A DNA stretch of 1,113 nt from NCBI RefSeq assembly GCF_003334255.1, contig NZ_QOWU01000173.1, one strand, 5' to 3'. Source of the stretch: Escherichia coli (lineage in GTDB: Bacteria; Pseudomonadota; Gammaproteobacteria; Enterobacterales; Enterobacteriaceae). Position numbers: made by a program. This document shows, one piece after another, positions 1 through 1,113 of this stretch (positions are counted from its first letter, which is position 1; every line of letters begins with the position of its first letter).

Positions 1-1113
1 TTGAAATACAGGTTAGTCAGATATGTCAGCAGCCCAAACAGCAGACTCCCCAGCACGCCTATTGCCGCCCACTGAGACGGGGAAACCCTGTCCAGCAACT
101 GCAGGAACCAGTAGCCCGTTCCCACCGCTGACGTGGTGTATGACACACCTGTTGTGATTTTTTCCATCTGGTACATACCCCGTCTCCCGTACTCGGAAGC
201 TCACAACAACAAAAGGGCCACCAGCTCTTTACTGATGGCCCTGCCCCGCCGTTACAGCATTGTGCCCGGTTCGGGTTGTGTGTCTGTCATATCCGTCACC
301 GGTGACTCCGGCTGAATATCACCATTTTCCGTGGTGACATCTTCCGCCTGTGGTTCCGGAAGCAGTTCCGGGGATGGTTCCGGCTGTGCACCAAGCAATT
401 CATCCAGAATTGAATCCACTTCTGCATCAAGACGCGCCTCAAGGTTCTGCCGAAGTTGCTGTTTCAGTGCGCTCCGGACTTCTTCAGAGCGCAGGACTTC
501 CTTCACTGCCTCAGCAGTGACCAGCGATTTTATTTCTGACATAGGATTTTCTCGTTGAAAGGGGTTATTAAGAAGGTTGTTCCGGAATGAGTGGGGCTTC
601 TGTTTTTGCTCCGGCTGACTGACTGGCGCTGATTTTCTCTGCGGCCCTTTTATCAATCTGCCTGCGCCAGAAATCGCGCACTGCCCTGTACCCACCCGAA
701 AGAAGATACAGCACACAGACCGCCGTACAGAAGTACAGCATCACCTGATGAACAAATGTCATAGTTTCTTACCGTTATGGTTGACAATGAGAACTGTTTT
801 CATTTAAAAACCGATATACGAAAGCATCTTTTCTTTACATTCTCCATTGGGATTACCTCCGCCAGCTTCCGTTCCTGCCGCTGGCGGCTTTTTTTGCCGG
901 TTATGATGATGCCCGGCTTTCGTTAACTTTGACTGTGACCGTATCAAGCAGTACCGGATACGTCGCTTTTGCCCCCGTGATATCTGTCAGCGTCAGCGTA
1001 TCTGCTGTAAAGCCATCATTTGTCCACATCACAAGGTCAAACGCCGTCTGCTCTGTACCATCAATCACCGGAACGACTCTTTCGCTGTTATTTCCCGCAA
1101 AGCGGAAAACAAC

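Follow-up and report, generated by a model that had tools for sequence, protein, structure and literature searches.

Among described phages, the closest counterparts of the locus treated here are the genes orf25 and L0106 of phage 933W, which correspond to H0119 and H0120 of VT2-Sakai and are flanked by the esterase gene nanS-p (L0105) and the holin gene S. Open reading frames (ORFs) of the two families concerned, DUF826 and DUF1378, have already been recorded between nanS-p and S, with no function given (PMC10462455). In the present study, we analysed a stretch of 1,113 nucleotides from Escherichia coli (NCBI RefSeq assembly GCF_003334255.1, contig NZ_QOWU01000173.1), hereafter the window, in which a DUF1378 gene and a DUF826 gene lie between the 3' end of nanS-p and the 5' end of S, all genes being read from right to left on the minus strand. 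An initial annotation of this DNA had described two small co-oriented ORFs, coding for a membrane protein of 64 amino acids and an acidic protein of 96 amino acids, 25 nt apart and followed by a strong terminator in front of the holin, and we could confirm all of these elements on the minus strand. The 933W region resembles the window in gene families, gene order, position, downstream terminator and holin, and at the nucleotide level it is 85.9% identical to the window across 80% of the window's length. Unlike the 933W allele, the window codes for a DUF826 protein with a longer tail (96 versus 90 amino acids) and belongs to a prophage type without stx. The DUF1378-DUF826 block is an already known, annotated pair of conserved hypothetical genes of Shiga toxin (Stx)-type and other lambdoid prophages. 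In the Stx-type prophages it is part of the late operon, beside stx, nanS-p and the lysis genes, and it is present in roughly one fifth of the complete E. coli genomes (1,006 of 5,426; median two copies, up to seven).

In the paradigm of the phages lambda, 21 and 82, the late genes are transcribed by a Q-modified RNA polymerase that ignores terminators. The definition of a moron reportedly goes back to Juhala and Hendrix in 2000, and bor and lom of lambda as well as stx of the Stx phages are said to be lambdoid examples. The stretch from Q to S is a documented moron site (PMC4104026), in agreement with what the initial annotation had stated, and Tree et al. described convergent small-RNA genes as typical of this site (PMC4104026). 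In the enteropathogenic E. coli strain E2348/69, pasA and pasC lie between a gene for a sialic acid esterase and the operon of holin and lysozyme (2026 preprint). The coordinates and strand of PasA and PasC are given in Table S6 of PMC8550237, and in cells without induction, RNAs of the PasA type have been shown to be abundant and to depend on Hfq (PMC8550237).

We consider it fairly probable that DUF1378 and DUF826 form an optional pair within the Q-dependent late transcript between nanS-p and S, where the terminator would belong to the flank of the holin gene, the small-RNA gene upstream of the pair would be autonomous and the two proteins would constitute a membrane-anchored pair linked to NanS-p. 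For the comparison of related loci, we used 80 IMG/VR loci whose holin is 99-100% identical to that of the window, 71 of which have 1,200 nt or more of sequence upstream. The pair is present in 36 of the 71 loci and absent in 35, with conserved flanks, and each of the 71 has the NanS-p esterase gene upstream of the holin, whether the pair is there or not. Three architectures could be distinguished. The first, as in the window, consists of nanS-p, an antisense small-RNA gene, DUF1378, DUF826, the terminator and S (architecture a). In 31 of the 35 pair-less loci the order is nanS-p, terminator and S, with a complete esterase gene that ends beside the hairpin preceding S (architecture b), and in three further pair-less loci the esterase gene is truncated. 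The third arrangement, with nanS-p, two tandem antisense small-RNA genes, the terminator and S (architecture c), was seen in locus L010 and in prophage PP2 of E2348/69, from which the pair is absent. The homology between the window and the pair-less loci resumes at the pre-S hairpin. Judged from these loci, the pair together with one small-RNA gene is truly optional within the late operon of lambdoid prophages; presence and absence at the same site between conserved flanks is the pattern that the initial annotation had suggested looking for in the synteny of related prophages. Natural phage pairs that differ only by the DUF1378-DUF826 block exist. At the other end of the variable DNA, the C-terminal 70 residues of NanS-p are mosaic, with 47-100% identity among loci L005-L084, whose holins are 99-100% identical, and the recombination breakpoint on that side of the block would therefore lie inside the esterase gene.

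The terminator (204-242, minus strand) is located directly in front of the holin gene. Its hairpin (242-214) has a 12-bp stem with seven GC pairs and a 5-nt loop, and is followed by a T-rich tail at 213-204, TTTTGTTGTTG (equivalent to UUUUGUUGUUG). A 57-nt segment containing these elements folds at -27.6 kcal/mol (z = -3.99), and none of 200 shuffled sequences folded as well. We found a hairpin with a T-tract at the same distance from the start of S in all 24 distinct upstream variants, whether or not they contain the pair, and a conserved leader of the form TTGTTGT(G/C)AGCTTCCG...GGGAGACGGGGTATG on the 3' side of the hairpin. All of the 12 representative variants that were folded gave values between -19.6 and -29.1 kcal/mol. 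The homology between the hairpin in architecture (b), AGAGCCATCAGT/ACTGGTGGCT, and that of the window, AGGGCCATCAGT/GCTGGTGGCCCT, is obvious, and other upstream variants carry different pre-S stems. When the hairpins of 12 variants were aligned, 92.4% of the cells were paired, compared with 36-72% when the 3' partner was slid, and five of the 12 stem pairs change on both sides. Neither the observed percentage of pairing nor the covariation score was reached by any of 500 shuffles.

Based on folding, covariation and the 24 upstream variants, the pre-S hairpin can be regarded as an intrinsic terminator and as a selected structure that is tied to the 5' flank of S and not to the pair, because a homologous element precedes S after DUF826 and after nanS-p alike. 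The structure is constant, and the variable DNA would have been inserted or deleted upstream of it. An assignment of the terminator to the cassette itself is not supported, since a covarying hairpin stands at the same place before S in pair-less loci, including those where nanS-p adjoins it. The related proposal that the terminator insulates the holin holds in so far as a genuine terminator precedes the holin gene, and the insulation is supported by inference; it would, however, be a property of the lysis cassette and not of the pair. Such a terminator would stop unmodified RNA polymerase before the lysis genes, and Q-modified polymerase would read through it. It resembles the pR'-qut-tR' arrangement of lambda, 21, 82 and 933W, where the late transcript likewise runs into an intrinsic terminator and read-through is needed for S, R and Rz. 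Unlike tR', the terminator of the window is positioned several kilobases downstream of pR', directly before S. In the searched literature we found no experimental characterisation of the pre-S terminator, and PMC12571312 contained nothing on it. Further terminator-like matches at 728-706 (minus strand), 579-597 and 135-149 (both plus strand) are inside coding sequence and were treated as chance.

The 138-nt spacer on the 5' side of DUF1378 is filled by a small-RNA unit (781-895, plus strand) that is antisense to the intercistronic RNA between nanS-p and DUF1378. A perfect -35 box (TTGACA, 781-786) is separated by only 18 nt from the start codon of DUF1378 on the opposite strand, and it is followed by a -10-like A-rich region at about 804-810 and a variable body. 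The unit ends with a terminator, in which an 8-bp hairpin, CCGCCAGC/GCTGGCGG (arms at 859-866 and 880-887), precedes a run of seven T residues at 889-895 that abuts the stop codon of nanS-p. A search of Rfam yielded a match to Esr41 (RF02676) at 821-895, which is full length and weak (20.5 bits, E-value 0.35), stays below the gathering score of 102 and serves as a pointer only. In an alignment with EcOnc52 from prophage Sp4 of the enterohaemorrhagic E. coli Sakai and with PasA and PasC of E2348/69, the TTGACA box, the GCTGG...T7 terminator and the adjoining nanS-p stop codon are invariant. Like PasA, PasC, EcOnc51 and EcOnc52, the unit of the window lies between the stop codon of nanS-p and the late gene that follows, and it runs convergently to nanS-p; the TTGACA box, a terminator of the CCGCCAG...CTGGCGG type and the T7 run are also shared. 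Unlike in these RNAs and Esr41, the body of the RNA, and hence any seed region, differs. Thirty-one of 33 distinct regions upstream of DUF1378 have kept the unit, and in Escherichia, in Citrobacter and in one Mu-like variant its promoter is situated 18-29 nt from the DUF1378 start codon. By comparison with the described RNAs, we assign 781-895 as a small-RNA gene of the PasA/PasC/EcOnc52 type, and this gene, rather than the protein pair, would be the promoter-plus-terminator unit of the stretch. Together, an autonomous small-RNA gene and a fixed terminator guarding the holin would bear on how read-through, toxin release and the timing of lysis are modelled.

At the pair-less loci L003 (prophage PP2 of E2348/69, positions 2770-3045) and L010 (positions 3125-3400), we observed two tandem antisense small-RNA units, each with its own TTGACA box and terminator. 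One of the two tandem small RNAs of PP2 is PasA, and the tandem arrangement would explain the published PasA forms, an 85-nt major RNA and a 236-nt read-through RNA.

No sigma-70-like promoter for the pair was detected, neither in a strict consensus scan, which returned no site on either strand, nor when positions 763-900 of the gene strand were inspected by eye; this negative result is suggestive only. We also found no step in GC content at the pair, with values of 0.49-0.56 across the cassette compared with about 0.43-0.55 in the lysis and esterase regions next to it. It has previously been shown that nanS-p is up-regulated by 1-2.4 logs on induction with mitomycin C (PMC10462455), which fits late, Q-dependent transcription rather than lysogen-specific expression. 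With no recognisable promoter and a position between the late promoter and S in the same orientation, the pair would be transcribed by Q-modified RNA polymerase after induction, whenever S is. Unmodified polymerase passing through nanS-p would transcribe the pair as well.

A SASA-family esterase gene is located immediately upstream in every pair-carrying locus with enough upstream sequence, and the order esterase, DUF1378, DUF826 and holin is also found in Citrobacter and in divergent E. coli prophages. Moreover, we identified the same three genes at the right end of Mu-like prophages (L088-L091 and L101), where tail-fibre assembly, Gin, an esterase (SASA/DUF6645), DUF1378, DUF826, a hairpin, an ORF of 66 amino acids, Com and Mom follow each other and no holin was found near the trio. 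This Mu-like variant occurs in 207 of 5,426 complete E. coli genomes, and its DUF826 protein, P0234, in 910 blocks of the contig collection. The genes of the Mu-like copy are preceded by strong Shine-Dalgarno sequences, and in two of the Mu-like loci (L088 and L090) DUF1378 follows a 35-nt spacer that holds no small-RNA unit. The constant neighbour of the pair would thus seem to be the esterase gene, and the holin gene and the esterase gene can apparently each do without the pair, which argues against a dedicated role of the pair in lysis. The gene orders suggest a three-gene esterase module. The pair would be anchored in the membrane, with the basic cytoplasmic helix of DUF1378 beside the acidic helical DUF826, and its action would come late in infection and be tied more to the NanS-p module than to lysis, as the esterase-DUF1378-DUF826 trio recurs in Mu-like prophages far from a holin. 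From the opposite charges of the two proteins and their co-occurrence, a DUF1378-DUF826 complex is plausible.

Several points weigh against an optional, Q-dependent pair linked to NanS-p. The strict promoter scan also missed the promoter of the small RNA, whose homologues are expressed, and hence the pair may have a weak or non-sigma-70 promoter. A terminator-like hairpin follows DUF826 in the Mu-like copy too, so that a terminator associated with the cassette is possible. The gene nanS-p is present in all 71 lambdoid loci regardless of the pair, and the link to the esterase is mainly based on the Mu-like context, where the trio could stem from a single ancestral block transfer. The interaction of DUF1378 with DUF826 is purely inferred, and the apparent fusion proteins are only singleton frameshifts. 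These candidates (P0033, P0073 and PHROG 8301), which had been considered as Rosetta-stone evidence, were rejected, as DUF1378 is shifted in them into the overlapping DUF826 frame.

A second explanation is that the pair is an autonomous moron, which would use a promoter of its own for expression in the repressed prophage, serving exclusion, anti-defence or host modulation, and would carry its own terminator that also shields the holin. As with lambdoid morons, some related phages carry these additional genes and others do not, here within the accessory region between Q and S, a known moron site. To this extent the initial description as a moron-like cassette stands, given the conserved flanks of the 36 loci with and the 35 loci without the pair. 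The hairpin 3' of DUF826 in both the lambdoid and the Mu-like context and the presence of the pair at a second accessory site, from gin to com/mom, in the Mu-like prophages might also hint towards an autonomous moron. Unlike in lambdoid morons, however, no promoter of its own was found on the gene strand and the GC content is like that of the flanks; in these two respects the description was not supported. The terminator is shared with the pair-less loci, where a homologous structure remains although the cassette is absent. Furthermore, the upstream spacer is occupied by the opposite small-RNA gene with its -35 box close to the DUF1378 start, and a comparison of both proteins with the PADLOC defence models gave no family at an E-value of 0.1 or below. 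We therefore regard an autonomous moron as unlikely.

Regulation of lysis was considered as a further possibility. DUF1378 might act as an antiholin, as a releasin or as a modulator of the holin, with DUF826 as its cytoplasmic partner, and the two might tune the pinholin and the signal-anchor-release (SAR) endolysin encoded downstream. The location of the pair directly upstream of S in lambdoid prophages of E. coli and Citrobacter would agree with such a role, and in both size and topology DUF1378 resembles small membrane proteins associated with lysis. This stands against the finding that the pair is missing from about half of the loci whose holins are 99-100% identical, and against the Mu-like prophages, in which the esterase trio is far from lysis genes. 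In Salmonella enterica (L094-L097), a distant DUF826 subfamily (P0240) is found alone, after Rz, between Rz and a four-gene block that includes a methyltransferase, ahead of the terminase genes. Moreover, neither ORF matched a holin, antiholin, spanin or endolysin family in PHROGs, Pfam or NCBIfam. The initial annotation, which had noted that neither protein resembles a lysis component and had recommended a homology search, proved correct in this point, as both ORFs fall into the Pfam families DUF1378 and DUF826 and not into lysis families. A function in lysis regulation is rather improbable on these grounds.

The position of the small-RNA gene opposite the DUF1378 leader allows for two explanations in which the RNA controls the protein. 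In one of them, the small RNA, DUF1378 and DUF826 would be a single module, where a PasA-like antisense RNA gates a membrane-active protein and its acidic cytoplasmic partner. If this were true, it would mean a new membrane effector pair in Stx-type prophages, either similar to type I toxins or accessory to the release of the NanS-p esterase. Such a module is doubtful, and we judge it improbable, since there are loci with the small RNA but no DUF1378 and loci with DUF1378 but no small RNA.

In type I toxin-antitoxin systems such as tisB/istR-1 and zorO/orzO, the toxin gene is accompanied by a divergent antisense RNA. In analogy, DUF1378 could be a peptide that damages the membrane, and the cis-antisense RNA would cover its leader, so that leaky expression is silenced in lysogens. 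A small hydrophobic protein of 58-64 amino acids and an opposite small-RNA gene over its leader are features in common with tisB/istR-1 and zorO/orzO. The promoter of the small RNA abuts the ribosome-binding region of DUF1378, the RNA is fully complementary to the leader, this juxtaposition is seen in the 31 of 33 regions mentioned above, and the abundance and Hfq dependence of PasA-type RNAs in non-induced cells would be in line with a silencing function. Unlike in the known systems, DUF1378 and the small RNA are separable and are not obligately paired: DUF1378 is found without the RNA in the Mu-like loci L088 and L090, and the small-RNA units are found without DUF1378 in PP2 and PP5 of E2348/69, in L010 and in Sakai Sp4. 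In addition, no promoter for the toxin was found, and the block contains a second conserved protein gene, DUF826, which has no counterpart in type I systems. Taken together, a type I toxin-antitoxin system is very unlikely.

Both ORFs of the optional pair are real genes under purifying selection, because they match Pfam families, their ratios of nonsynonymous to synonymous substitution rates (dN/dS) are well below 1, the reading frames are retained and the gene order is kept in relatives. Twenty-six distinct alleles of DUF1378 and 30 of DUF826 were collected, and relatives from E. coli, Shigella and Citrobacter at 42-48% identity have the same architecture and neighbours; the conservation of the reading frames in related phages, which the initial annotation had left to be checked, is thus given. 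Searches of NCBIfam and of PDB sequences revealed no relatives of either protein. A profile search among 1.84 billion representative proteins returned only 50 relatives with an E-value of 1e-3 or below, all of them DUF826, and the DUF826 profile gave no link to any known family. Literature found under the locus tags L0106, ECs1209, ECs1210 and Z1468 consisted of unrelated papers only. That the ORFs are non-functional hitch-hiking frames or annotation artefacts, as might be argued from the lack of an experimental function on record, the narrow taxonomic range of these 50 representatives and the variable, low-complexity tail of DUF826, is extremely unlikely in view of the low dN/dS of both genes, the frame kept despite insertions and deletions, the gene order conserved across genera at 42-48% identity and the good ribosome-binding sites of the Mu-like copy.

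The DUF1378 gene (568-762, minus strand) starts with an ATG at 762, ends with a TAA at 570-568 and codes for 64 amino acids. The hidden Markov model of the family (PF07125) is matched over its full length (E-value 5.1e-35; residues 1-59 against positions 1-59 of 59), and the ORF also belongs to phrog_494 (E-value 4.8e-37), a PHROG without assigned function. The most hydrophobic window of 19 residues comprises residues 3-21, with a mean Kyte-Doolittle value of 1.91, and is followed by a basic stretch with seven lysine or arginine residues within residues 25-45; the isoelectric point of the protein is 9.2. An AlphaFold2 model based on the family alignment shows one continuous helix from residue 3 to 50 and then a disordered tail, with a predicted local distance difference test (pLDDT) score of 76-89 across the first 40 residues. 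Hence, DUF1378 is predicted to be a bitopic inner-membrane protein with an N-out/C-in topology, according to the positive-inside rule, in which a transmembrane segment (about residues 3-24) is followed by a basic helix in the cytoplasm and then by a disordered tail. Compared with the window allele, the dN/dS of the 26 distinct alleles is 0.11-0.37.

An intercistronic spacer of exactly 25 nt (543-567, minus strand), which on reading the sequence shows a weak Shine-Dalgarno-like GAGAAAA, separates DUF1378 from the DUF826 gene (252-542, minus strand; 96 amino acids). The DUF826 model (PF05696) is matched with an E-value of 2.4e-28 by residues 1-57 (positions 1-59 of 75), and phrog_311, again without assigned function, with an E-value of 9e-37. 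The protein has an isoelectric point of 4.05 and a net charge of -15.5. According to the alignments, its N-terminal part (residues 1-51) is helical and conserved, and the tail is acidic, rich in proline and glutamate, variable and disordered, with a hydrophobic end, TML or MMM. The AlphaFold2 model, likewise based on the family alignment, contains a short helix at residues 10-17 and a long amphipathic helix at residues 20-50 (pLDDT about 83-94), with values below 55 for the remainder. An invariant core is formed by R31, L34-E35, R37-D43, I45-L46 and E48-G51. Among the 30 distinct alleles, dN/dS is 0.03-0.19 for the 51 N-terminal codons and 0.3-0.6 for the tail, and the total length varies from 79 to 101 amino acids, with a reading frame that is never lost despite insertions and deletions.

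The DUF826 frame is open for about 58 codons on the 5' side of the start codon (252-716, minus strand), where it overlaps DUF1378 in another frame, and the annotation pipeline PGAP frequently calls a DUF826 protein of 134 amino acids with a start within this overlapping part. The conserved MSEI/MPEI start and the strong Shine-Dalgarno sequence of the Mu-like copy support the form of 96 amino acids, which we favour over the longer call on the basis of these sequence features. The label "head completion protein", attached to the DUF826 ORF in GenBank entries of PhiR phages, was not adopted, as no profile backs it.

The right end of the window is formed by the 3' end of a NanS-p-type, SASA-family sialate O-acetylesterase gene (901-1113, minus strand; the last 70 codons and the stop codon, the latter at 901-903), which was identified by a match to PHROG 3591/143, by the RefSeq label and by tblastn with a full-length NanS-p query. 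In a RefSeq context that is 100% identical, the gene is labelled as SASA family carbohydrate esterase. Using megablast, the window was matched in 347 phage records, mostly of Stx-converting phages, and the best phage match was PhiR5_1 with 98.7%. A copy of positions 245-770 with 100% identity is present in a lambdoid prophage without stx in E. coli JNEC-KY176, where the order is Q, a MazF-like gene, a methyltransferase, three tRNA genes, the SASA esterase, DUF1378, DUF826, holin, lysozyme, Rz and terminase.

The left end of the window (1-176, minus strand) carries the first 58 codons of a class II holin gene S of the phage 21/933W type, as indicated by phrog_20, phrog_9876 and existing annotations; the gene runs off the left edge of the window. 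In the literature, this holin is counted among the pinholins of the P21 holin S family (PMC10462455). It has dual starts, Met1 at 176-174 and Met4 at 167-165 (MYQMEK), which resemble the antiholin/holin pair S 71/68 of phage 21. In the holin gene of PP2 from E2348/69, ATA replaces the first ATG, so that only the short form is expected. Finally, a protein from four E. coli contigs (P0098) is a chimera of 103 amino acids in which residues 1-37 of the holin are joined to the C-terminal part of DUF826, presumably as the result of a rearrangement between the holin and DUF826 genes.

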